Source: a virus
Lineage: Duplodnaviria > Heunggongvirae > Uroviricota > Caudoviricetes
Length of the DNA stretch: 34,750 bases
Strand: one strand, 5' to 3'
Virus record (IMG/VR): IMGVR_UViG_2875703104_000001
The position numbers and the translations under genes were made by a program. The notes below the pieces were generated by a model. The model worked only from the letters and a program-made list of their open reading frames with translations, was not told where the DNA came from and ran no database searches. Shown piece by piece: positions 1 to 34,750 of this stretch; the stretch's first letter is position 1, and every line of letters starts with the position of its first letter.

Positions 1-903
1 TTATGAAAGCATAGACCGTTTACCCTCCCTGGGTACGACGGAACAGGGGTCCTGATGGATAATCACATCCGATCCCGGAAAACGCCGTAAAATAGCCTGC
101 TCTACCTGATCCGCCACCATATGTGCCTGAACCAAAGGCAGAGAGTCTTCCATTTCCAAATGAATCTGAATAAAGCGGGTCGGCCCTGACTGCCGCGTGC
201 GAAGATCGTGAGCGCCGCTAACACCCGGCCAGGAAGTCACGATATCAATAATTTCTTGCCGTTCCTCATCAGGTAATGCGCGATCCAGTAATGACTGTAC
301 CGCCTCATATCCCATGCGTAACGCGCTATATAAAATATAGATGCCGATTCCCAATGCAAACAGAGCATCGGCGCGATGCCAGCCGTACCAGGACAACCCC
401 AGCGCCAGCAGAATTGCGCCGTTCATCATAACATCAGACTGGTAATGTAGCATATCAGCCCGCACCGCCTGGCTTTGCGTCCGGCGCACCACCCAACGCT
501 GAAACGAGACAAGGATAATCGTACAAATTAGCGCCACAATTGTCACGATAACCCCGACGCCTGGATCTGTCATCGGTGTTGGAGATACCAGATGTTGAAT
601 ACCCGTCAAAAACAGGAATAGTGCCGAACCGGAGATAAACATACTTTGCGCCAGCGCCGCGAGGGACTCAGCTTTACCGTGACCAAACGAGTGATTATCG
701 TCGGCAGGTTGCAGGGAATATCGCATCACCAGTAAATTCGTCAACGACGCGCCGATATCCACCAGCGAATCCACCAGCGCGGCGAGAATACTCACCGACC
801 CGGTATACCACCATGCAAAAATTTTAATCAGCAATAGCAGCGAAGCCATCGCCGTCGCAGCAATCGCCGCCCGACTGACCAGCCGTCCATAAGATTGATT
901 CAT
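1..903 (-). CDS. fieF: Cation diffusion facilitator family Fe/Zn efflux transporter FieF (YiiP)
   Basis: ORF 1..945 translation from [36 protein letters not shown] onward matches E. coli FieF as I recall it; the true ATG is the reverse complement of 901-903, and the ORF-track start is an upstream in-frame extension. Stop is TAA at 1-3. Confidence 0.93.
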
Positions 904-984
904 AAATACTCCCGCTATCAACTGACGGTAGTATAACGGAAGCAAATCATCTGCAATGCATTAAGCAGCAGGCAAATTGAGGAT

Positions 985-1011
985 AAAAAAAACCCCCACA
1001 TCATGTGGGGG
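985..1011 (-). terminator. Rho-independent terminator (hairpin plus U8) on the minus strand, probably the host cpxP/CpxQ terminator
   Basis: Plus strand reads AAAAAAAA-CCCCCACA-tca-TGTGGGGG; on the minus strand this is an 8-bp GC-rich stem followed by eight U. It sits upstream of fieF, where the cpxP 3' end lies in E. coli. Confidence 0.6.
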
Positions 1012-1045
1012 AAGACAGGGATGGTGTCACAAAAAAGCACCTAAC
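985..1045 (-). ncRNA. cpxQ: Possible CpxQ-like sRNA 3' portion (cpxP 3'UTR-derived); 5' boundary and identity uncertain
   Basis: Minus-strand sequence GUGACACCAUCCCUGUCUUCCCCCACAUGAUGUGGGGGUUUUUUUU resembles the CpxQ/cpxP 3'UTR end as I recall it; not verified by alignment. Confidence 0.3.
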
Positions 1046-1108
1046 CTGATGATATAAATGGATTTATATCAACCACTGTCCACATAGCGTCCACATCGAC
1101 CATAAATA

Positions 1109-1128
1109 AGCCCCTCGACTGAGGGGCT
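1109..1128 (-). terminator. Hairpin immediately downstream of ogr (AGCCCCTC-gact-GAGGGGCT), flanked by T-rich runs on both strands
   Basis: Perfect 8-bp inverted repeat with a 4-nt loop, 11 nt past the ogr stop. Could also overlap the att core, since P2 attP lies just downstream of ogr. Confidence 0.5.
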
Positions 1129-1138
1129 ATTTTTGTGA

Positions 1139-1357
1139 TCACATCCACATAATTTGCTGCCCTGACGGCAACGGGTGCGGCCTTACGGCGTGGACTTCTC
1201 CCGGCTTCACGATGTATCTCTGTACCGACTCATAAGTGATGAACGTGGCGCTGCAATTCACGTTCTGACACTGGTGATAACGCTCTTTTGTCGTGTCAGT
1301 GATATAGCGGCTTGTACGCGCATGTGCGGCATGCTGGCATAAAGGACAATGAAACAT
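1139..1357 (-). CDS. ogr: Late-gene transcriptional activator Ogr (Cys4 zinc finger), 72 aa
   Basis: MFHCPLCQHAAHARTSRYITDTTKERYHQCQNVNCSATF... matches P2 Ogr from memory, with CxxC...CxxxxC zinc-finger cysteines. The ORF-track N-terminal extension to 1420 is rejected. Confidence 0.92.
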   Translation of the reverse strand: MFHCPLCQHAAHARTSRYITDTTKERYHQCQNVNCSATFITYESVQRYIVKPGEVHAVRPHPLPSGQQIMWM

Positions 1358-8222: not shown

Positions 8223-9269
8223 TCACTTTCCAAACTTATTAAATTGTTCAGCAATGAAATCAATATACTCATTACCTTGGCCGTTATGCCTGAATTTTTG
8301 CTGCCCTTCGAAATCTAAATTAGGTGAAAAATGAATTATTTGGTTATCTTCATACAGTTTTAAAGGAGAATAAAATGACAATGATTTATCATTCAATAAT
8401 TGACGCACTCCTGTTATAGCACTACCAATCAAAATATCACATAATTGAACTGCCGGGCTTAGTTTTGAATCAACTTGGTGAACATGCTCAAGCTTTAATG
8501 GGAATTTAATACTGGCGATTTCAGACATCTTAAACTCGGCTGGCGTCTGACATTTGATAAGCATCGAAAGATATTCATTGTATTGTAAAAGATTTTTAGA
8601 ACGATCATGCTCAATGCTATACGGTCCCTCTGACATTAATTCAGTGCGTGATATTAGTGCTTGAAGAATAACAAATGCTGCATCAGTAGAAATTTTTGGA
8701 TTAGTTATTGCCGTAATACAATCTGGATGCTCTAAAGCTAGTGGCCCCAGCACTTCCGGTAATAGACGCCAATTCACGGCCCTAACGTTCGCAATAAGGT
8801 TATTTACTGCTGTGTGCGTTTTCTCATGCATCGCATTTTGAAAAGATATTAGGATATTATCAAAATCTCTACCAAAGTAGCTTTGGCAGACATAGTAAGC
8901 CATTGATGCCATAGAAACGTTTCCACCATTTTCGTATAGATTTATCCCATGGTCATAGTAAAAAGGCTCTACCGCATACTCAATAAACATTTGAATTAGA
9001 ATCAAACGTTTATCGGCAACACAAGTAACACATGGAAAATTGGCAAGTAGTTCCTGTTGCAAAGTAAAAATTGGTTTTTGATAACTATCTCGCTTTTTAA
9101 GAGAGCTAAATTTCAATTCAGGGGCTTTGTGTTTAGGAAAATGTTGTCTGATAAGATGAAGAGCATCGTCATGACTAATCTTTACAGCGCTGGCCCCTTG
9201 CCAAGGTTGTGACTTTTGAAGAAGATCTCGCCCAGTGTAACCAGACTCATCAATTGAAAATATACTCAT
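8223..9269 (-). CDS. Cargo protein, DUF3800-like (348 aa), function unknown; candidate defence or moron gene
   Basis: N-terminus MSIFSIDESGYTG resembles the DUF3800 signature (hydrophobic-x-IDESG) and a C-terminal VQLCDILIGSAI resembles the DUF3800 QxADxxA-type motif. Gene is markedly AT-rich and sits at the P2 Z/fun position between FI and G. Confidence 0.6.
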   Translation of the reverse strand: MSIFSIDESGYTGRDLLQKSQPWQGASAVKISHDDALHLIRQHFPKHKAPELKFSSLKKRDSYQKPIFTLQQELLANFPCVTCVADKRLILIQMFIEYAVEPFYYDHGINLYENGGNVSMASMAYYVCQSYFGRDFDNILISFQNAMHEKTHTAVNNLIANVRAVNWRLLPEVLGPLALEHPDCITAITNPKISTDAAFVILQALISRTELMSEGPYSIEHDRSKNLLQYNEYLSMLIKCQTPAEFKMSEIASIKFPLKLEHVHQVDSKLSPAVQLCDILIGSAITGVRQLLNDKSLSFYSPLKLYEDNQIIHFSPNLDFEGQQKFRHNGQGNEYIDFIAEQFNKFGK

Positions 9270-9367
9270 TTATTCTGTGTCCATAGCTGTTGTTTCACCC
9301 AAAATACCTTTTTGGATAGTATTGCGCTATAGCCTTTAACCCTATTAATTGAGATCCATCGATGCAA

Positions 9368-9397
9368 GCAACGTCCGCTCATGGCACAGAGCGGACG
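9368..9397 (+). repeat. 30-bp hairpin-forming element, copy A (GCAACGTCCGCTCATGGCACAGAGCGGACG)
   Basis: Internal perfect 9-bp inverted repeat CGTCCGCTC/GAGCGGACG; about 87% identical to copy B at 11114..11143 in the same orientation. Confidence 0.7.
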
Positions 9398-9414
9398 ATA
9401 TCACTGAGCTGAAG

Positions 9415-9438
9415 GTCCGCTGAGAGCGAGGAGCGGAC
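9415..9438 (+). repeat. Second, shorter hairpin with the same GTCCGCT/AGCGGAC arms
   Basis: GTCCGCT-gagagcgagg-AGCGGAC, read directly, 18 bp downstream of copy A. Confidence 0.6.
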
Positions 9439-9548
9439 GTAGGGAATTGGTCCTTTCCCCCAACGATAACGTGTGTTAATCAGCCGAGAGTGGGTTATGA
9501 AACGCGGTGAATAGTTATGTTCCCAGTATCGCCATATTCCAGCCACTT

Positions 9549-10934
9549 TCAACGCATGCTTTTTGCGGTCTTATCTTGCTCCCAATGTGTGACACCTTCG
9601 ACCCCACGCGTCGAGTCAGATGTAAGCATCAATGGCTGTCTAAGGAAGAGCCCCATCAAATCCGGGACACGGGCAAAGTCTTGAACAGTCTCAGCCCACT
9701 CATAGTTGTCCTCTAATGGGTAATAATTAACGGCATGCAGGAAAGCACCCAACACGGTTGTTTTAGAGGCATCGTAGGCCGAGATATGCTCCATGTTTTT
9801 ATCCCTACGTAGTTCTTCAATATCTATGCCTTCGCAAGTCTCATACCAAATATGCACCACGCCAGCACGATCAGGGGGAATCTGCATGACTCCATCATTG
9901 AGCAAGCTCTTGAAATGCTTGGATCTGAGGCCAAGAGAAATCTCATGATCGCAGCACCACTGAGCTCCAACGCACTTTGCAACATCCTCTACAAAAATGT
10001 TGAGAATATCGTTATTGGTGCCAGGACGAATAACTCTCTGAGCGATAGTCGAGATACTTCGTTTCTCATTGCTATCTAGATCCCCAAATACCAGCAATTC
10101 ATGCTGTGGGCTATTGGCTCTGACTGAAAATTTTCTGTAGTGACGTCTGAGACCTAATTTGTCGATGGCTCGTATTCCCACACTGATTGAACCTTCATTA
10201 GCTTTTCCCGTCCCCCCTTTAATGGCTAGATTCACCGCTTTAATAACGTCTGCCGGAGTCACACTGGCGACCTGCTCATGGAAAATTATATCGACAATGT
10301 TCCATGGTGCGACTTTGAGCATATGTTGGCTCAATTGATGCCAGATGTTGGCCCAGGCTTGCTCTTCTGTCTTTGAGTACTTGGTTTGCTTATCCGACCT
10401 TTTGCACTCGACGTAGAACTCCAGATCACCTAACTTGACGAGCATATCCGGTGATTTTTTGGTCTTTCCATCGGGCCAAACAATGCTGCTTTCTGGGATG
10501 AAGGCAACCTCATAGCCGTTCTTTAGGTAGAACGATGCCGTCAGCAGCTCAAAAATTTGAGTTTCTGGTTTATTGTTATTTGCTAGCATTTTGTCCAGAA
10601 CATCATCGACGTATGGGACTTTGCGAAGCTGGTCTGCAACAGCTCCGATGGCCATAGCATAGGGGTAGATACGTCTGCTGCTGTAAGTAGCATCACTATA
10701 TGGAAAATCATGAGACAGATACGACGCCAGAATGTACCAGTCGATGTCATCTTCTGCTGGTATGAAGAGCTGGGGCTCTATCGGCAGATTGATGTTAAAC
10801 TTAGCCTCCTTCTCTCTTATGCGCTTGAAATATGCAGCTTTGCGAGCAGCCCAGGCCTCAGTTCCAAGCCTATCCACAAGCAACTGATAAAAAGCTTTTG
10901 TTCTTAAACGCTCAACACTACTGACACTATCCAT
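9549..10934 (-). CDS. Cargo protein of unknown function (461 aa) with a possible PD-(D/E)xK nuclease-like motif
   Basis: AT-rich ORF with no recognisable P2 counterpart. The segment SPDMLVKLGDLEFYVECK has PD...E-x-K spacing compatible with a restriction-endonuclease-like core; this is weak, motif-only evidence. Confidence 0.55.
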   Translation of the reverse strand: MDSVSSVERLRTKAFYQLLVDRLGTEAWAARKAAYFKRIREKEAKFNINLPIEPQLFIPAEDDIDWYILASYLSHDFPYSDATYSSRRIYPYAMAIGAVADQLRKVPYVDDVLDKMLANNNKPETQIFELLTASFYLKNGYEVAFIPESSIVWPDGKTKKSPDMLVKLGDLEFYVECKRSDKQTKYSKTEEQAWANIWHQLSQHMLKVAPWNIVDIIFHEQVASVTPADVIKAVNLAIKGGTGKANEGSISVGIRAIDKLGLRRHYRKFSVRANSPQHELLVFGDLDSNEKRSISTIAQRVIRPGTNNDILNIFVEDVAKCVGAQWCCDHEISLGLRSKHFKSLLNDGVMQIPPDRAGVVHIWYETCEGIDIEELRRDKNMEHISAYDASKTTVLGAFLHAVNYYPLEDNYEWAETVQDFARVPDLMGLFLRQPLMLTSDSTRGVEGVTHWEQDKTAKSMR

Positions 10935-11734: not shown

Positions 11735-14544
11735 TTACACCTGCGCAACGTTATACCATGTGCCATTGATGTATTTTTGTATTGGTCTGAATACTGCTGG
11801 GTCATCACCATCGACTTCACCGACAATACCAAGCCCCGTGATTACATGGCCTGATTTTTCATACATCACGCCTTTTTGCATGGTCTGAACAACACGTGTG
11901 CCAAGTCTGACATCTCTCACATAGCGGGAATCAAAGTTACCGTAATCCGAGGGATTAACACTCCCCGTAATATTTATGGTTTTATTACTTTGAATACTTC
12001 CCGAGACAAAGCGCATAACATGGACGCTATTAGCATAAACATCCAGATTACCATCACCATTTTGTTTAAAGCCCGTGTCATTATCACCCAAAACAATCGA
12101 ATTACCGCCAAGAGCACTGGATGTTCCTATACCCAGAGCACCATTCAATTGACCACCAGATAACGGCAGGGCACCGACATCTCCCGCTGTAGGTTTTCGC
12201 GTTGTGGTATAAAACTCAGACCAGTCAGCCTCGAATCCGTAACCGTCACGAGCAGAACGATAAAAAATACCGCCGTTCTTATAATTAACGCGGAACTGGG
12301 CGGCGGGACAACTTCCTTCACCGATATTAAAATGAAGAATTAACGTTGATGCACCACCAATAGTTGCGTTATAGGCTCCGCTACTCCAGTTCCATCCAAC
12401 GGCTTTATCATTCGCAACGGTGTCTCCTGTTTTTCCTGAAGCAAATGCACCAATATTTTTCGGCGTCAGGTTAATATCTGATGTTCCATCAAACGAAACG
12501 TTATTAATTTTATTCCTGAAGCAAATGCACCAATATTTTTCGGCGTCAGGTTAATATCTGATGTTCCATCAAACGAAACGTTATTAATTTTACGGGCTGT
12601 TTTCAGCTTTGTTGCTGTCGCCGCATTGCCGGACAGTTCACCAGAAAGGCCAGCACTGAATGTCTGTTTCGCGCCCCATGTATGGGCTTCGTCAATGATT
12701 GGTACTCGTCTTGTTGTGATCGTGCGGCTTCCCGGATTTCCTGAAATACGCACCATAAAAAAGCGGTAGTTGGCTTTACTTACAGTGCTGCGCCATACAT
12801 GCATTGAGCGCCCCGAACCAGAATCATCACTCGGACCGACTGAGATGTTTATCAGGTTGCCATCAATGACGCCCCAGTCCATACCGTCGGGAATATTGGT
12901 CATGTTATCCAGCCGAACGGTTATCAGACTGCCCGGCACAAAATTGTATGTCTGCCAGTCCAGGCTGGTGAGTTTTGCCACTGCGCCACCGATACCCAAC
13001 TCTAACGGCAAAGAGTTTGAGTTATAAATCTGTCGCCACTCCCCCCACGCGTTAAATGAGCCACCAAGAAACACTCGCTCATATAAACGGTCTTTTGTAG
13101 CTGCGCTGGTTCCTGTGGTCGTGTAACGTTGCAAAACATAGACACCATCCTTGCGCCTGATGACTTCCAGAAAACCAGACTGCCCCTGGATTGGGGTGTG
13201 GGTCGCTTTGCCTGTCACACTGTAAATACCCGGAGACATCAAATCATCCAGGTCATCCTCATAGAAGGTACTACTGGTCTGATAACCAATTTGGATCCAG
13301 TCTTCCCACTGTGGATTTTCTGCATCCCATTTGGCTGTCAGGCCGCGAATATACATAGTCCCGTTACGGGTTGTATAACGCTGCGTGCGTCCATATAGCC
13401 CACCTTCGAAAATTTCCAGAATGCCCTGCGCGTCTCCTCCCTGCTCAGGGTAATGTCGTTCAAAAGAAGCTATTGCTGAACTGCTGTTTCTCCATAGACC
13501 TAAATGTTCTGCGCCACCGAGAGAGTTAAGGTCAATGGTCGTACTTAGAGCACGCGTTACAGCCTGAACATGGCGCCATGCTCCCCATGGTCCATCATTA
13601 CCATTCCATGTTCCAATGAGTTTGCGGGTATACAAATTTCCGTCACGTGTGGTATAGCGTTGCGTGCCTGCAAAATTGCCGCCAGCAAAAACCTCAAGCA
13701 CACCGACAGCATTATCTTCCGGGAAGTTTTTCTCCAGTGTTGCGTTGGTGGATGTTGCTTTAGACCAGATACCTGAATAAGCCTTAACAGGACCAAACGT
13801 ATTCAGATCAGCATTAAGCGGCATTTCGCCATTGTTTTTCATAAACGTCAGGCTGGTAACGCCAACATTGTCCAGAAAAGCGCCCTTATCTGGAATATCG
13901 CCACCGTTCTGGTCTTTCTGCAGACGTTTCTCAGCATTGTCATAGGCTGCTTTTACTGCCTTTGGCGTTGCCGCCAGCTTTTCACTGGTGCTGTTTGTTG
14001 CACTGCTTAACTGAGTAAAACCTTTTTCTGTCAGCGTGGCGTCAGGATGGCGGCGGGACTGCTCATGCTCTGCGATTTTGTCATCGACGTAATCCTGCGT
14101 CGCCATCACTGTGCTGGCATCAATAGTCAGCTCAACAGACGCCACGTTACTGATAATAATAACCATGCGGCAGGTCTGCGCACGTCCGGAGCCTTCAGCC
14201 AGTTCTGGTTTATAGCTTTCTGCCATGTTGGATACCGCAATCAGTGTTCCGGCATCGTCATACAGACCAAGCTCACGCATCCAGAAGCCGCCCACTTCGG
14301 GCGGTACAACCAGTTCAGCCACGATATAGTTTTTATTCTTATTATCCACGCTGACTTTATTCAGAGCGTGACGCCAGACCTCATGCACCAGTTTCGTCTG
14401 ACCGGCATCCGGCACCGGCAATTTGCCATTACCGTCACCCACGGCCATTGCAGACAGGTTTACTTTTTTCCCGCCGGGGACAGTGGCGGCAGCCAGCTTT
14501 GCGGCTCCGGCAGTAGTGATAACGGTTTTAAATTTCGTGCTCAT
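11735..14544 (-). pseudogene. H: Tail fibre gene H, frame-disrupted by an 80-bp tandem duplication (N-terminal ORF 12466..14544; C-terminal open frame 11735..12465)
   Basis: N-terminus MSTKFKTVITTAGAAKLAAATVPGG... matches P2 gpH. The ORF stops 47 nt into the first repeat copy with an aberrant ...GIKLITFRLMEHQILT tail. The other frame is open from 12465 to 11735 and encodes the expected continuation (...KNIGAFASGKTGDTVANDKAVGWNWSSGAYNA...). Deleting one 80-bp copy gives a single 909-codon ORF. Confidence 0.85.
12433..12592. repeat. Perfect 80-bp tandem direct duplication (12433..12512 = 12513..12592) inside gene H
   Basis: Read directly: both copies are TTCCTGAAGCAAATGCACCAATATTTTTCGGCGTCAGGTTAATATCTGATGTTCCATCAAACGAAACGTTATTAATTTTA. 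80 is not a multiple of 3. Confidence 0.95.
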
Positions 14545-26576: not shown

Positions 26577-28220
26577 TTAAGATCTACATTCAACTAAAAG
26601 GTACACTAATGGACGTTCTGGCGTCCCATTCTTCTTTGCAACAAAAGCAGATATTTTGTGTTTTGCTATTTTTTGCTTGAGTTTTTTACATAACACTTTG
26701 TTTATATAACCAAGTTTCCCGCTCTCATGAACAACAGCTATAGCATGTGGATCAACCGGGTTATCCTCTTCAGGAACAAGCTTGACCAAATCACCGACCA
26801 TTACTTTCGACAAATCAAGCCCTTCCTGATAACGAGTTCCTGCCACTTCAAAAAGAAGCTCACCTTCACTATTAAGAATTTCTGGATCTGGCACCAAACA
26901 AAAACCATCGCCAGGTGATTTTGCTCCTGTATATCCTAACAGCGCAAAATCAGAGCCTTCAAATGGATGGGGGAGCAAATGTTGAGCCAGATACTCAGCA
27001 AAGTCTTTTCTTTTCCGTGGTGGTAAACGCCGAACAAACGGGTCAAGCACGTTGTTCGTATGTTCTTCACTTTTCAGACTAAATGCGGGATGTCCTGCAA
27101 ACCCTTTCTCTTGGGCTTTAGCATAATCTTCTGACTGAAAATGGTATGTGAAGACGTAGTTATCCCCTTGCTGACGATCAATCTGACCAACAACATAACG
27201 AGTACCGCCTGTGGGTGGCTGCCATGTAAGAAGCAACCGAGTAGGCTCCATTATTCTGTTTATAGTACGCATATTTAGAATCAGTGATAACCTTAGGTAT
27301 CTACGCCTCAATAAACGAATCGTCCAATCCGCTCGTTCCCTAGTGAACGGCACATCGGAGCTAATTTCGCAAAGTGAATCTATCTTGTCGACCAGTTCCT
27401 GAAAATCAAATTCAAGTCTCCGGGCCAAGTACGCTTTTGACTGCTCATCAAGAGCCAAATCCTGTATAGAAGAAATATGACCTAATCGTTCATGCGTGTC
27501 TGCCCGATTCTTCCGCAAATGATGACAACCACGCTGTATGTATTCATCTACATTTTGATGGTTCCATCCTCTGATCCTCTCTACATACCTTTCATGCCCC
27601 AAACTAGTACCATTATCGAAATATGGTGCGAGATATCCCTTCACTTTAGGTGGCGTTATGCCTGGTGCAGATTCAGGTACAAAAACAAAACCCCAATTCT
27701 CTTGGTGTCTATCACTATTACCGATGAGCGCATCAAAAAGCAGCATATCGTAAAGCCATTGGATCCAGTCTGGAGAGATCAGGCCGCGGATACTAAAAGC
27801 CCTACAAATTAAGCGTAGATCAACAAGGTTATGGTGTCTTCCGGAAGAGTCATCAAAATCCGATATCAACACATGAAAAAAATCAGACGCATGAACAAAT
27901 AACTGGCTACTTTGATCGTAAAACCACTCAAGCAAAGCTCCATATTCGTATTCACCGTTCTCCATCATTCTTCGCGCTGGCAATGCTTTAGGAACAGGAA
28001 CGCCCATAACATCTCCAACTATATAAGCAACGGTTTCCATCCAGTACTGATCGGGATAAGCATCTCTTGAGAGTTTAAAAAGATAAGGCCATTCCGGTTT
28101 TATCCCCTCAGGAGCATCATTCGGTGACCAAAGCATTTTTTTATCCCTCGCTCCTCGAGGAAAAATGCCATGCTCATCATCTTTACGCCAACTAGTTACA
28201 TCTATTAAATTGATATCCAT
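26577..28220 (-). CDS. HipA-like Ser/Thr kinase domain protein with C-terminal HIRAN-like domain (547 aa); candidate defence or toxin effector
   Basis: LFDALIGNSDRHQENWGFVF fits the HipA-family catalytic loop (GNxDxHxxN) and LAPYFDNGTSLG the downstream HipA motif. C-terminus LFEVAGTRYQEG...LVPEEDNPVDPHAIAVVHESGKLGYINK fits the HIRAN signature. Gene is AT-rich and sits between cos and A. Confidence 0.65.
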   Translation of the reverse strand: MDINLIDVTSWRKDDEHGIFPRGARDKKMLWSPNDAPEGIKPEWPYLFKLSRDAYPDQYWMETVAYIVGDVMGVPVPKALPARRMMENGEYEYGALLEWFYDQSSQLFVHASDFFHVLISDFDDSSGRHHNLVDLRLICRAFSIRGLISPDWIQWLYDMLLFDALIGNSDRHQENWGFVFVPESAPGITPPKVKGYLAPYFDNGTSLGHERYVERIRGWNHQNVDEYIQRGCHHLRKNRADTHERLGHISSIQDLALDEQSKAYLARRLEFDFQELVDKIDSLCEISSDVPFTRERADWTIRLLRRRYLRLSLILNMRTINRIMEPTRLLLTWQPPTGGTRYVVGQIDRQQGDNYVFTYHFQSEDYAKAQEKGFAGHPAFSLKSEEHTNNVLDPFVRRLPPRKRKDFAEYLAQHLLPHPFEGSDFALLGYTGAKSPGDGFCLVPDPEILNSEGELLFEVAGTRYQEGLDLSKVMVGDLVKLVPEEDNPVDPHAIAVVHESGKLGYINKVLCKKLKQKIAKHKISAFVAKKNGTPERPLVYLLVECRS

Positions 28221-28229
28221 ATCTTACGG

Positions 28230-28781
28230 TTACCCAGCTAATGCACGGAAAGCAGCACTAACATAAGCTACCTGAAACTTTGCATCTCGAAGCGCATGAT
28301 GCGCATCAGTAACATTAATGGAAAAATTTGCCCTTACATCAATATTCTTAAGGCTTTTAGCTAGTTCAACGATGGTACGCACGTCTCGATCATTTCGAAA
28401 ACGCCATGGGATATTTTGCGCATGTTTACGGTAAACCGCTGCCAATATAGCGTTATCAAAGCTTGCCCCATTCCCCCAAACTTGTACGTCATCGTTACTA
28501 CGACTTCGTACAAATAGAGAAAATTCTTGTAAGGCTTCATGTAAGTCAACAGCAGACGGGTCATTAAAAACCGCCCTTGCAGAATCGCTTTGTATCATCC
28601 ACCACTGTAAAGTTTTTGGGTCTACAAAACTATTTTCCAATGCAGATGATAGGGTTATAACTCTATAAAACTCATCCCCACACTTGCCAGTCAGAGGCTC
28701 AAAGAACACAGCGCCGATTGAAATCAAAGGAGCATCCATTGACACACCTAATGTTTCTATATCGAGCATTAAATTATTCAT
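28230..28781 (-). CDS. DEDDh-family (DnaQ/RNase T-like) 3'-5' exonuclease (183 aa)
   Basis: Exo I motif LDIETLG (D-x-E), central FDNAIL aspartate and C-terminal AHHALRDA (H-x4-D). GGAGG ribosome-binding site 4 nt before the ATG; 9-nt gap to the kinase gene suggests one operon. Confidence 0.7.
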   Translation of the reverse strand: MNNLMLDIETLGVSMDAPLISIGAVFFEPLTGKCGDEFYRVITLSSALENSFVDPKTLQWWMIQSDSARAVFNDPSAVDLHEALQEFSLFVRSRSNDDVQVWGNGASFDNAILAAVYRKHAQNIPWRFRNDRDVRTIVELAKSLKNIDVRANFSINVTDAHHALRDAKFQVAYVSAAFRALAG

Positions 28782-32818: not shown

Positions 32819-33006
32819 ACCCTCCGGCTTTTCAGAAAGGTCAGAGCCTTTTTTAACGGACTCTGTTTTTTGGTGCGGATAATGATTCCCTTACGCCCCT
32901 TACCGTGGGTGATGGTGAAGTCAATCGCCCTTGGGCTTTCGTTACGCAGTAACTGAGCAATACAACGCGGTTCACTCATAATCACAACCCCATCCACAAA
33001 AGCCAT
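32809..33006 (-). CDS. Small ORF between cox and B, P2 orf78 position (65 aa or shorter)
   Basis: Position only; overlaps the cox 3' end unless translation starts at the internal Met (MSEPRC). Confidence 0.4.
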   Translation of the reverse strand: MAFVDGVVIMSEPRCIAQLLRNESPRAIDFTITHGKGRKGIIIRTKKQSPLKKALTFLKSRRVWK

Positions 33007-33254
33007 GCATCACGCTGTTCAACTGGTCGGTTATAAAACGCCTCTCGTACAGCGCGATTAAACTCTGGAATGAAAACCCACTTCTCACCGACACGAGCGT
33101 TCGGCTTACTTGGATCACGAAGCTCAATAACTGGCAATTTATTCTCTTTTACCATCTTGACTACAGCCGTTTCTGGCTTACCAAGTAACTCTGCAAACTT
33201 AACCGTATGTACCGCATCAATCGGGTACTGAATCACATAGTCATTGACTTCCAT
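32982..33254 (-). CDS. cox: Cox: excisionase and repressor of the lysogenic promoter (90 aa)
   Basis: C-terminal ...GEKWVFIPEFNRAVREAFYNRPVEQRDAWLLWMGL resembles P2 Cox (...YWVYLPAWN...RDGWLMWLGL) as recalled; divergent from C. Confidence 0.8.
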   Translation of the reverse strand: MEVNDYVIQYPIDAVHTVKFAELLGKPETAVVKMVKENKLPVIELRDPSKPNARVGEKWVFIPEFNRAVREAFYNRPVEQRDAWLLWMGL

Positions 33255-33406: not shown

Positions 33407-33700
33407 ATGCAGACATTCGAAAAACTGAAAGCGATTAGGAAAGCAGAAGGCTTAACACAGGCGAAATTCAGCGAAATTAGCGGGATAGCTCTAGGAACAG
33501 TCAAAAATTACGAAAGTGGGCATAAAGACCCTGGTCTCAGCATCGTTATGCGAGTCACAAATACGCCTTTATTTAAAAAATATACGCTCTGGTTAATGAC
33601 TGGTGATACGTCACCACAAGCTGGTCAGATCGCGCCGGCTCTCGCACACATTGGGCAAAAACCAACAGAATCAGACCACTCCGAAAAACAGACTGGTTAA
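33407..33700 (+). CDS. C: Immunity repressor C (HTH, 97 aa)
   Basis: ...LWLMTGDTSPQAGQIAPALAHIGQKP resembles the P2 C repressor C-terminus (QIAPALAHFGQ) as recalled; helix-turn-helix-like region LTQAKFSEISGIALGTVKNYESG. Confidence 0.82.
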   Translation: MQTFEKLKAIRKAEGLTQAKFSEISGIALGTVKNYESGHKDPGLSIVMRVTNTPLFKKYTLWLMTGDTSPQAGQIAPALAHIGQKPTESDHSEKQTG

Positions 33701-33769: not shown

Positions 33770-34750
33770 ATGTCAATTAAGAAGCTCGATGATGGACGCT
33801 ATGAAGTGGACATTAGACCTCGCGGTCGCGACGGAAAACGCATCCGCAGGAAATTTGAAAGAAAAGCTGAGGCTGTAGCATTTGAGCGATACACAATCGC
33901 CTACGCCAGCCAGAAAGAATGGGCAGGTCAGCGAGCAGATCGCAGAACTTTGAGTGAGTTGCTGGACATCTGGTGGAAATATCACGGGCAAAACCACGAG
34001 CATGGAACAAAAGAGTTTAATCATCTGCTCAAAACCATCAGCGGCATAGGTGATATACCAGTGAGCCGGATGAGCAAAAGAGCTTTGATGGATTATCGTT
34101 CCATGCGACTACGTGATGGTATCAGTGCCGCAACGATAAACCGTGACATGTACCGATTATCCGGCATGTTCACAAAATTAATTCAATTGGATGAATTTTC
34201 CGGGCAACACCCAATTCACGGACTGCCGCCACTGGCGGAGGCCAACCCTGAAATGACGTTCCTGGAAAAAGCAGAAATCGAAAAACTGTTAAATGTTTTG
34301 GATGGTGATGACTTACTTGTCGCACTTTTATGTCTGAGCACTGGAGGAAGATGGACGGAAGTTGCCACGCTAAAACCAGCACAGATTACAAATTGCAGGG
34401 TTACCTTCCTGAAAACCAAAAACGGTAAAAAGCGAACCGTGCCGATTTCTGAGGAACTGGAGAAAAAAGTTAAAGAGGAGGCCAGCGCTAAATTATTCAA
34501 AGTTGATTATGAGAAGTTTTGCGGGATTTTACGCAGAGTGAAGCCAGATATACCACCCAATCAGGCAACCCACATCCTGCGGCATACATTCGCAAGCCAT
34601 TTCATGATGAATGGGGGCAATATAATCGCACTGCAACAGATTCTGGGACATGCGAGCATTCAGCAGACGATGGCCTATGCGCACCTTGCGCCTGACTACC
34701 TGCAAAATGCCGTCGCGCTGAATCCTCTAAAAGGCGGAGTGACGTTATAA
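33770..34750 (+). CDS. int: Tyrosine integrase, P2 Int family (326 aa from MSIKKLDDGRYEV)
   Basis: N-terminus MSIKKLDDGRYEVDIRPRGRDGKRIRRKF matches P2 Int as recalled; C-terminal catalytic region HILRHTFASHFMMNGG...LGHASIQQTMAYAHL has the R...HxxR...Y tyrosine-recombinase residues. Stop is at the final 3 bases of the window. Confidence 0.92.
   Translation: MSIKKLDDGRYEVDIRPRGRDGKRIRRKFERKAEAVAFERYTIAYASQKEWAGQRADRRTLSELLDIWWKYHGQNHEHGTKEFNHLLKTISGIGDIPVSRMSKRALMDYRSMRLRDGISAATINRDMYRLSGMFTKLIQLDEFSGQHPIHGLPPLAEANPEMTFLEKAEIEKLLNVLDGDDLLVALLCLSTGGRWTEVATLKPAQITNCRVTFLKTKNGKKRTVPISEELEKKVKEEASAKLFKVDYEKFCGILRRVKPDIPPNQATHILRHTFASHFMMNGGNIIALQQILGHASIQQTMAYAHLAPDYLQNAVALNPLKGGVTL

Follow-up and report, generated by a model that had tools for sequence, protein, structure and literature searches.

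A junction between cpxP and fieF as the probable attL of a Wφ-type, P2-like prophage whose attachment core overlaps the 3′ part of the small RNA CpxQ

Introduction

Positions 946-1138 of the viral DNA analysed here, a stretch of 34,750 nucleotides referred to as the window, are with high confidence the attL of a P2-like (Peduovirus) prophage of the Wφ type, inserted at the normal attB of Wφ between cpxP and fieF. The attachment core of this junction consists of the 3′ 44 nt of a small RNA of 58 nt, CpxQ, together with 3 nt past its U-tail, and leaves the 14-nt 5′ seed of that RNA outside. CpxQ is an Hfq-dependent sRNA that RNase E cuts from the cpxP 3′ UTR (PMC6755755, PMC9438474), with the nhaB and cfa seed at its 5′ end (PMC6755755). 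The assignment to the Wφ type is anchored by four observations: a core shared by the attachment sites, a P2-family integrase gene at the opposite prophage end, arm-type repeats beside the core, and the existence of both empty sites and free attP.

The attB of Wφ was reportedly defined by Karlsson et al. in 2006, and CpxQ is said to have been defined by Chao and Vogel in 2016. As an insertion site, the locus appears in the genome paper of E. coli W, which tabulates 'cpxP-fieF: Wphi1 (P2)' (PMC3032704), and in an O157 study, where a prophage of 31 kb is given for the interval between the two genes. In a study of Salmonella Infantis, the fieF- and cpxP-flanking primers of one strain are separated by about 31.7 kb, so that an insertion at cpxP-fieF is suggested for that strain as well. 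Across the literature searched, no link of CpxQ to integrases, att sites or prophages was found, and the site is named only as cpxP-fieF. The cpxP-fieF site and the Wφ att system are already published, and the explicit overlap with CpxQ is an annotation-level addition to them.

Results

The window and its prophage

The window opens with the host gene that flanks the prophage, named fieF after the annotation of the corresponding gene in matching E. coli genomes (Table 1). From position 1139 on it consists of a P2-like prophage in reversed orientation, comprising ogr, D, tail genes, head genes and replication genes; the stop codon of ogr occupies 1139-1141, and the counterpart of this gene is annotated ogrK in a matching genome. 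At the far end, the stop codon of int forms the last bases of the window, with attR just beyond it. Because the window stops exactly at this codon, it holds no att repeat pair, and a repeat search of the 34,750 nt found no second copy of the att core, which is single-copy there. The attR sequence was taken from a matching genome, NZ_AP021963, which is identical to the window over a 281-nt query (880-1160) and in which attR lies 116 nt after the int stop codon.

The integrase gene is 99.8% identical to that of Wφ at the DNA level, and its protein is about 100% identical to Wφ Int. Taken as a whole, the att system is without difference from that of Wφ (Peduovirus Wphi): int, the 47-bp core and the host locus are the same, and the P′ arm is nearly identical. 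The remaining prophage, on the other hand, differs from Wφ. It is a mosaic with other cargo genes, and its tail-fibre gene is split by an 80-bp duplication.

Table 1. Features of the window and of its left prophage junction, with positions counted from the first base of the window
Feature	Position	Strand	Basis
fieF (CDF cation-efflux transporter; host gene flanking the prophage)	1..903	-	Pfam Cation_efflux and ZT_dimer
Host arm of attL: native cpxP-fieF intergenic DNA with the fieF upstream/promoter region	904..981	-	equals prophage-free attB
att identity core, 47 bp, common to attL, attR, attB and Wφ attP	982..1028		four-way comparison
5′-truncated CpxQ duplicate: most of stem-loop 1 and terminator, without the 14-nt seed	985..1028	-	alignment to cpxP 3′ UTR (attR, attB)
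cpxP/CpxQ Rho-independent terminator	985..1011	-	terminator scan and fold; stem 993-1000/1004-1011, loop 1001-1003, U8 985-992
Polymorphic terminator loop base (third loop base)	1001		T in phages and many hosts, G in K-12-type hosts
Inverted repeat AGACA-N7-TGTC(T), equal to CpxQ stem-loop 1; candidate integrase core-site pair	1013..1029		inferred
Phage P′ arm of attL	1029..1107		near-identity to Wφ attP between core and ogr
Perfect 9-bp inverted repeat in P′ arm	1051..1070		read from sequence; hairpin in fold
Two arm-type integrase direct repeats in P′ arm, 11-bp period	1078..1095		consensus match; binding predicted
Bidirectional hairpin terminator between ogr and int of the circular phage	1109..1128	both	scan matches and folds on both strands
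ogr (late-gene activator; first prophage gene)	1139..1357	-	Pfam Ogr_Delta, 1.1e-21
cox	32982-33254	-	
C	33407-33700	+	
int (Wφ-type tyrosine integrase)	33770..34750	+	Pfam Int_N and Phage_integrase

The attachment core

Four sequences were aligned: the window (attL), NZ_AP021963 (attR), the prophage-free genome NZ_CP051727 (attB) and phage Wφ, AY135739 (attP). Common to all four is the core GATAAAAAAAACCCCCACATCATGTGGGGGAAGACAGGGATGGTGTC, whose size of 47 bp, like the position of the CpxQ 5′ end, is based on our alignments and on secondary literature. This core has one occurrence in the window, against 0 expected by chance. To the left of the core attL equals attB and is host DNA, and to its right, over 1029-1140, attL follows Wφ attP nearly base for base, the P′ arm being absent from the prophage-free genomes compared. 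A megablast of 880-1160 matched 880-1028 in 5,426 of 5,426 complete E. coli genomes, and only in 584 of these does the match run on into ogr. Unoccupied attB is present in 4,591 of the 5,426 genomes, and attP in 43 phage records. The core is also common to L-413C and many 'Yersinia' and 'Escherichia' P2-like phages.

These comparisons bear directly on the first-pass annotation, which had proposed that integration rebuilds the 3′ end of cpxP, had placed attL in about 1012..1108, and had named an alignment with prophage-free E. coli and a direct repeat downstream of int as the evidence to look for. The alignment match stops at 1028 and does not continue uninterrupted to 1138, and the second core copy is found directly after int at attR and not elsewhere. 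The rebuilding of the cpxP 3′ end is borne out as well, in that attP and the host share the core and a reconstituted cpxP-CpxQ stands at attR, outside the window. The proposed interval was right in part: it takes in the P′ arm and the point (1028/1029) at which the window parts from the empty site, and it misses the left half of the core together with the terminator. Taken literally, a junction at 1012-1108 would leave the terminator hairpin as purely host DNA outside the att site. This is extremely improbable, given that the whole hairpin and its U8 are present in the attP of free Wφ and of 42 other phage records, that the identity between attL and attR starts at 982, and that the attR loop base and everything 3′ of it are phage-derived.

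On the host side, 904..981 is identical to two prophage-free attB sequences, and the DNA upstream of fieF is undisturbed by the insertion. A CGTTATACTA motif upstream of fieF is kept across genera; the fieF promoter region as such is a prediction.

Overlap with CpxQ

In the empty site the cpxP stop codon TAG lies 28 nt to the right of the core, and the minus strand then reads UAAACCCUG-UUUUCCUUGCCAUAGACACCAUCCCUGUCUUCCCCCACAUGAUGUGGGGGUUUUUUUU. The extent of CpxQ was set by counting 58 nt back from the U-tail. The 14 nt of CpxQ that this count leaves outside the core, UUUUCCUUGCCAUA, are replaced by phage sequence in the window copy, and a U-rich stretch, GCUUUUUUGU, stands directly 5′ of the window's CpxQ fragment. 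In the predicted fold of CpxQ, an unpaired 5′ end is followed by a small stem-loop, AGACA-CCAUCCC-UGUCU (stem-loop 1, with a predicted 5-bp stem and 7-nt loop), and by the terminator; both predicted stem-loops and the U8 are kept in the window fragment.

The window copy shares with CpxQ a Rho-independent terminator with a long U-tail. The gene upstream of it on the minus strand is ogr and not cpxP, which lies outside the window. Because the copy is detached from cpxP and is not full length with the seed, it is not a CpxQ member functionally, and the alignments place the intact cpxP-CpxQ unit at attR, beyond the window. An Rfam search of the window returned no family at its gathering score. The one related model, Hrs1 (RF02628), which lies on the strand opposite cpxP, reached 31.8 bits in the window and 44.5 bits at the intact locus, against a cut-off of 56.4.

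Two hairpins on the minus strand

The first-pass annotation had also described a strong minus-strand hairpin with U8 that resembles the cpxP/CpxQ terminator, followed about 95 bp further by an ogr terminator hairpin, and both are present, at a spacing of 98 nt. The first, CCCCCACA-UGA-UGUGGGGG (1011..993), has an 8-bp stem and a 3-nt loop, with U8 behind it (992..985); its sequence is the same as that of the cpxP/CpxQ terminator in E. coli without the prophage, and it folds at -16.5 kcal/mol inside the 44-nt fragment (z = -2.9). The second, AGCCCCUC-AGUC-GAGGGGCU (1128..1109 on the minus strand) with the tail UAUUUAUGG, starts 10 nt past the ogr stop codon and folds at -18 kcal/mol on the minus strand (z = -5.0) and at -19.9 kcal/mol on the other, with z about -5 for both. 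On the plus strand this second hairpin scores as a terminator too, with the tail ATTTTTG, which would set it between the convergent int and ogr genes of the circular phage. It is modelled as the minus-strand terminator of ogr and, once the phage is circular, the plus-strand terminator of int. A terminator scan of 850-1500 gave 3 terminator-like sites against 0.7 expected from shuffles. The two hairpins are unequal in their tails: the U-tract after the ogr hairpin is poor, whereas the CpxQ terminator downstream of it is strong.

The phage-derived side of the core

The window and Wφ have T as the third base of the terminator loop (position 1001), where K-12/MC4100 has G, and this polymorphism marks the origin of the core on either side of an integrated prophage. 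Alleles were counted as perfect matches to 95-nt junction-specific queries, a typing that left out junctions with extra mismatches (256 attL and about 189 type-2 attR). Among the 4,591 genomes with an empty attB, 3,215 match the T query perfectly and 894 the G query; among the 786 with attL, the corresponding counts are 378 and 152. At attR the picture is different. No perfect G match was found in the 260 genomes with a Wφ-type P arm, for which the G variant alone was searched, and none in the 527-528 genomes with the second P-arm type, 339 of which match T perfectly. The 43 records of free-phage attP, compared with the G query, likewise hold no G; 34 of them differ from that query by one base, consistent with T. 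Single genomes that combine G at attL with T at attR include M217, 4/2-1, ECCWS199, H9Ecoli and AR435.

Base 1001 appears from this distribution to be host-derived at attL and phage-derived at attR, and to lie outside the heteroduplex overlap. With the alleles so divided, the population SNP pattern would bound strand exchange to 1002-1028. The terminator hairpin was considered as the crossover site and is ruled out, since its loop base 1001 segregates cleanly outside the overlap. In lysogens, at least the last 17 nt of CpxQ, made up of the final base of the loop, the 3′ stem half and the U8, would be phage DNA, and the earlier suggestion that the phage may supply part of CpxQ holds in this form. 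In K-12-type hosts, integration turns the CpxQ terminator loop from UGC to UGA.

A finer placement is offered by the inverted repeat that coincides with CpxQ stem-loop 1. There is about an even chance that the exchange falls inside a 7-bp overlap at 1018-1024 flanked by this repeat, in which case the phage would supply about 34-40 of the 58 nt of CpxQ. The identity block ends on the right at 1028 in the Wφ type and at 1026 in the type of L003, a circular element described below, and the left ends differ. Positions 1012-1028 are invariant in all species scanned, and lysogens outside E. coli gave attR only, with no further narrowing of the crossover.

Integrase arm sites

The arm-type repeats of the P′ arm have the form GTCCACAT-N3-GTCCACA, a pattern with a single match in the window, at 1078-1095, against 0.01 expected, and the P arm at attR has a matching repeat pair, GTCCACATAGTGTCCACA. 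The repeats of both arms agree with tgTGGaCa, the consensus for arm sites of the P2 type (Nilsson et al. 2011, PMC3448106); the same paper records that the Wφ integration site in E. coli was identified earlier and that the core of L-413C is the same. Closer to the core, the perfect inverted repeat GATATAAAT-GG-ATTTATATC may be the site of an accessory factor, Cox or IHF. An analogous AT-rich inverted repeat is found in the attP of the L003-type element.

Spread of the site

The junction is present in about 14.5% of the 5,426 complete E. coli genomes, or about one in seven. A cross-genus scan, with one genome per species that has CpxP, returned 80 loci. The first ~40 nt of CpxQ, from the 5′ seed to the start of the terminator stem, are invariant across genera in about 80 species, and variation is confined to the terminator loop, the upper part of its stem and the bases past the U8. 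Differing terminator stems, of the CCCCCUCA.../...UGAGGGGG types, were seen in Kosakonia, Leclercia and Pseudescherichia.

In 9 of the 80 loci, the terminator is followed directly by a P2-type integrase gene in antisense orientation to cpxP. Five of the nine carry a Wφ-type Int (85-98% amino acid identity over the four full-length genes; 75% for one partial gene), two a second type (67% identity), and one a third type (66%), the last locus holding an integrase remnant. The 67% type was also seen in Salmonella, and an E. coli assembly has it on a circular element of 32.3 kb that bears the label 'plasmid' (L003). Judged by these sequences, the CpxQ terminator is a common target of at least three P2-like integrase lineages across Enterobacteriaceae.

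Proposed mechanism and role of the attL copy

Integration may be pictured as follows. Wφ Int would bind the arm-type GTCCACA pairs in the P and P′ arms and swap strands within the 47-bp sequence common to attP and the host, and, with the phage bringing its own copy, the segment would be duplicated. At attR, cpxP would retain a complete CpxQ whose 3′ end is now phage DNA; at attL, a seedless CpxQ fragment with a full terminator would remain, with ogr on one side and the intact fieF promoter region on the other. Most likely, the attL copy acts only as a recombination (excision) substrate and as a second terminator that shields fieF from ogr and late transcription. The strong CpxQ terminator would back up the weak-tailed ogr hairpin, and the copy would preserve the native order of terminator, fieF promoter region and fieF.

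The poor U-tract of the ogr hairpin, with the strong CpxQ terminator 98 nt further on, also lends itself to a more active interpretation, in which ogr read-through or late-operon transcripts are processed into a seedless, CpxQ-like, Hfq-binding RNA. Such an RNA, made of stem-loop 1, the terminator and the U-tail, would compete for Hfq or act on host targets through internal pairing. The retention of both predicted stem-loops and the U8 in the fragment and the U-rich stretch just 5′ of it are in keeping with this idea. We nevertheless regard it, including its consequences for Hfq and host targets, as quite unlikely: a promoter scan of the minus strand between ogr and the core detected no promoter-like site, the documented seed for nhaB and cfa is the CpxQ 5′ end that is missing here, and the role as a recombination substrate explains the sequence fully, so that its conservation gives no independent support. 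The preferred account of the attL copy remains that of an excision substrate and second terminator.

The other end of the prophage raises a separate question, namely whether a constitutive transcript from Pc through C and int crosses attR and, being antisense to CpxQ and to the 3′ part of cpxP, lowers the output of CpxQ and CpxP. At attR, int on the plus strand is oriented towards the core and towards the minus-strand gene cpxP. The plus-strand terminator of the free phage is the ogr hairpin, which integration parts from int, and a consensus scan found no plus-strand terminator from the int stop codon to about 220 nt inside cpxP. This was, however, a simple consensus search, and Rho-dependent termination or termination at the reverse-read A8-hairpin may act in this interval. 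The expression of int is low in P2-type lysogens, and the frequency of the junction among E. coli genomes is not suggestive of a strong cost. An antisense effect of this kind is, on balance, unlikely.

Combining these elements, one could propose that Wφ-type lysogeny rewires the non-coding arm of the Cpx envelope-stress response by replacing the 3′ part of CpxQ, imposing an antisense C-int transcript and adding a second, seedless module. We hold this combination to be a long shot. If it were true, lysogens would differ in CpxQ/CpxP dosage, or would make a phage-controlled CpxQ decoy during induction.

Discussion

Integration at the 3′ end of a conserved RNA gene with reconstitution of that gene is well known for tRNA and tmRNA genes, and likewise for sRNA genes, among them cyaR/ryeE, rybB and ryeB. 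As reportedly set out by Williams in 2002, the anticodon arm is the classical target of tyrosine integrases, with an overlap of about 7 bp between inverted core sites, and the phage is said to carry the part of the gene that lies between the crossover and the 3′ end. The Wφ site shares this architecture with the integrators of tRNA genes, such as 186 in tRNA-Ile and HP1 in tRNA-Leu, in that the identity block likewise extends from a symmetric stem-loop to past the RNA 3′ end, and CpxQ stem-loop 1, with its 5-bp stem and 7-nt loop, resembles a tRNA anticodon arm. In contrast to those systems, the target here is not a tRNA, and a crossover in stem-loop 1 is inferred, the bound itself being 5′ of the last base of the terminator loop. 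Phages of the 186 type have long cores that keep the RNA gene intact (PMC3448106).

A parallel may also be drawn with P2-like and other phages whose site of integration is the 3′ end of an sRNA gene, a class of gene suggested as a target in earlier work (PMC3603311). For E. coli W, rybB, cyaR and ssrA are tabulated as P2-type sites beside cpxP-fieF (PMC3032704). In such systems (P2 at cyaR/ryeE; prophages at rybB, ryeB/sdsR and ssrA), as in the one described here, a hairpin-rich, conserved RNA end is targeted, and the phage copy of the RNA end restores the gene. Two features set the present site apart from the sRNA-gene sites. CpxQ is cut from the 3′ UTR of an mRNA, and so the target doubles as the terminator of a protein-coding gene; and the duplication here extends over just the 3′ 44 of 58 nt, with the seed left in single copy.

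With the 3′ two-thirds of CpxQ as the Wφ attB core, an sRNA derived from a 3′ UTR joins the RNA-gene ends used as attachment sites. The availability of the site across Enterobacteriaceae is explained by the first ~40 nt of CpxQ, which do not vary in about 80 species. In lysogens, a natural polymorphism reveals on which side the core derives from the phage. For work on CpxQ in wild E. coli, the partial second copy in about 14.5% of genomes means that probes will cross-hybridise and reads will map to more than one place, and in those lysogens the 3′ end of CpxQ itself would be phage DNA.

Gene content and integrity of the prophage

The tail-fibre gene of the prophage is interrupted by a tandem duplication of 80 bp, in perfect register and with copies that are 99% identical (see table). 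With both copies in place, no open frame in this region exceeds 694 aa, and the frame of that length corresponds to the N-terminal part of the tail fibre; once one copy is taken out, a single 911-aa tail-fibre frame is restored. The tail fibre is therefore thrown out of frame by the duplication, which may reflect a prophage that is defective or else an artefact of assembly. In NZ_AP021963, the genome that matches the attL query and supplies attR, the int end lies 80 bp nearer fieF than expected from the window.

Cargo genes occupy two regions. In the P2 hot spot, a 547-aa protein combines a HipA-like kinase with a fused HIRAN domain, such that one protein matches both A and B of the PADLOC candidate system PDC-M03, and its gene adjoins that of a 183-aa Rv2179c-like 3′-5′ exoribonuclease. 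Two further ORFs lie where P2 has its Z/fun locus; one encodes a 348-aa DUF3800 protein, and the 461-aa product of the other has no match in Pfam or PADLOC.

Coordinates of the features discussed
Feature	Sequence	Position	Strand	Location
Cargo genes	window	26577-28781	minus	P2 hot spot, portal gene to replication gene
Two more cargo ORFs	window	8223-10934	minus	tail sheath to tail-fibre genes
80-bp tandem duplication	window	12430-12589		inside tail-fibre gene
642-bp gene (WP_000416606.1)	L008	1432-2073		between P′ arm and ogr
642-bp gene (WP_000416606.1)	L009	1156-1797		between P′ arm and ogr
Locus compared with Rfam	L002	1606-1678		cpxP-fieF
Locus compared with Rfam	window	985-1051		cpxP-fieF
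Closely spaced att junctions (ECCWS199)	NZ_CP032237.1	4512379-4514328		attL-type to attR-type junction

Wφ-type prophages in other genomes

Many Wφ-type prophages, L008 and L009 among them, carry an extra hypothetical gene next to ogr, which is probably part of the reason why 786 E. coli genomes contain the attL junction but only 584 match through ogr. The prophage of this kind in strain M217 is full of IS elements. The two types of att junction in strain ECCWS199 are only ~1.9 kb apart, which suggests the remnant of an almost wholly deleted prophage, with the CpxQ 3′ end still duplicated.

The CpxQ locus in Rfam and a related phage

No Rfam family by the name of CpxQ matched the cpxP-fieF locus, whether in the empty site (L002) or in the window. 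The sole matching model was Hrs1 (RF02628, "Hfq-regulated sRNA 1"), at 44.5 bits in L002, under the cut-off of 56.4. Its alignment runs on the strand opposite cpxP, with the A-run first and the hairpin after it, and Hrs1 appears to model the CpxQ locus in the opposite orientation.

A 32,330-bp circular sequence labelled "plasmid unnamed3" in an E. coli assembly (L003; NZ_JBQJRQ010000002.1) is the entire genome of a P2-like phage in circular form, with an attP that contains a 45-bp version of the CpxQ att core. The integrase of this phage shares only 68% identity with Wφ Int. This Int type also adjoins cpxP in species representatives of Salmonella and Kosakonia.
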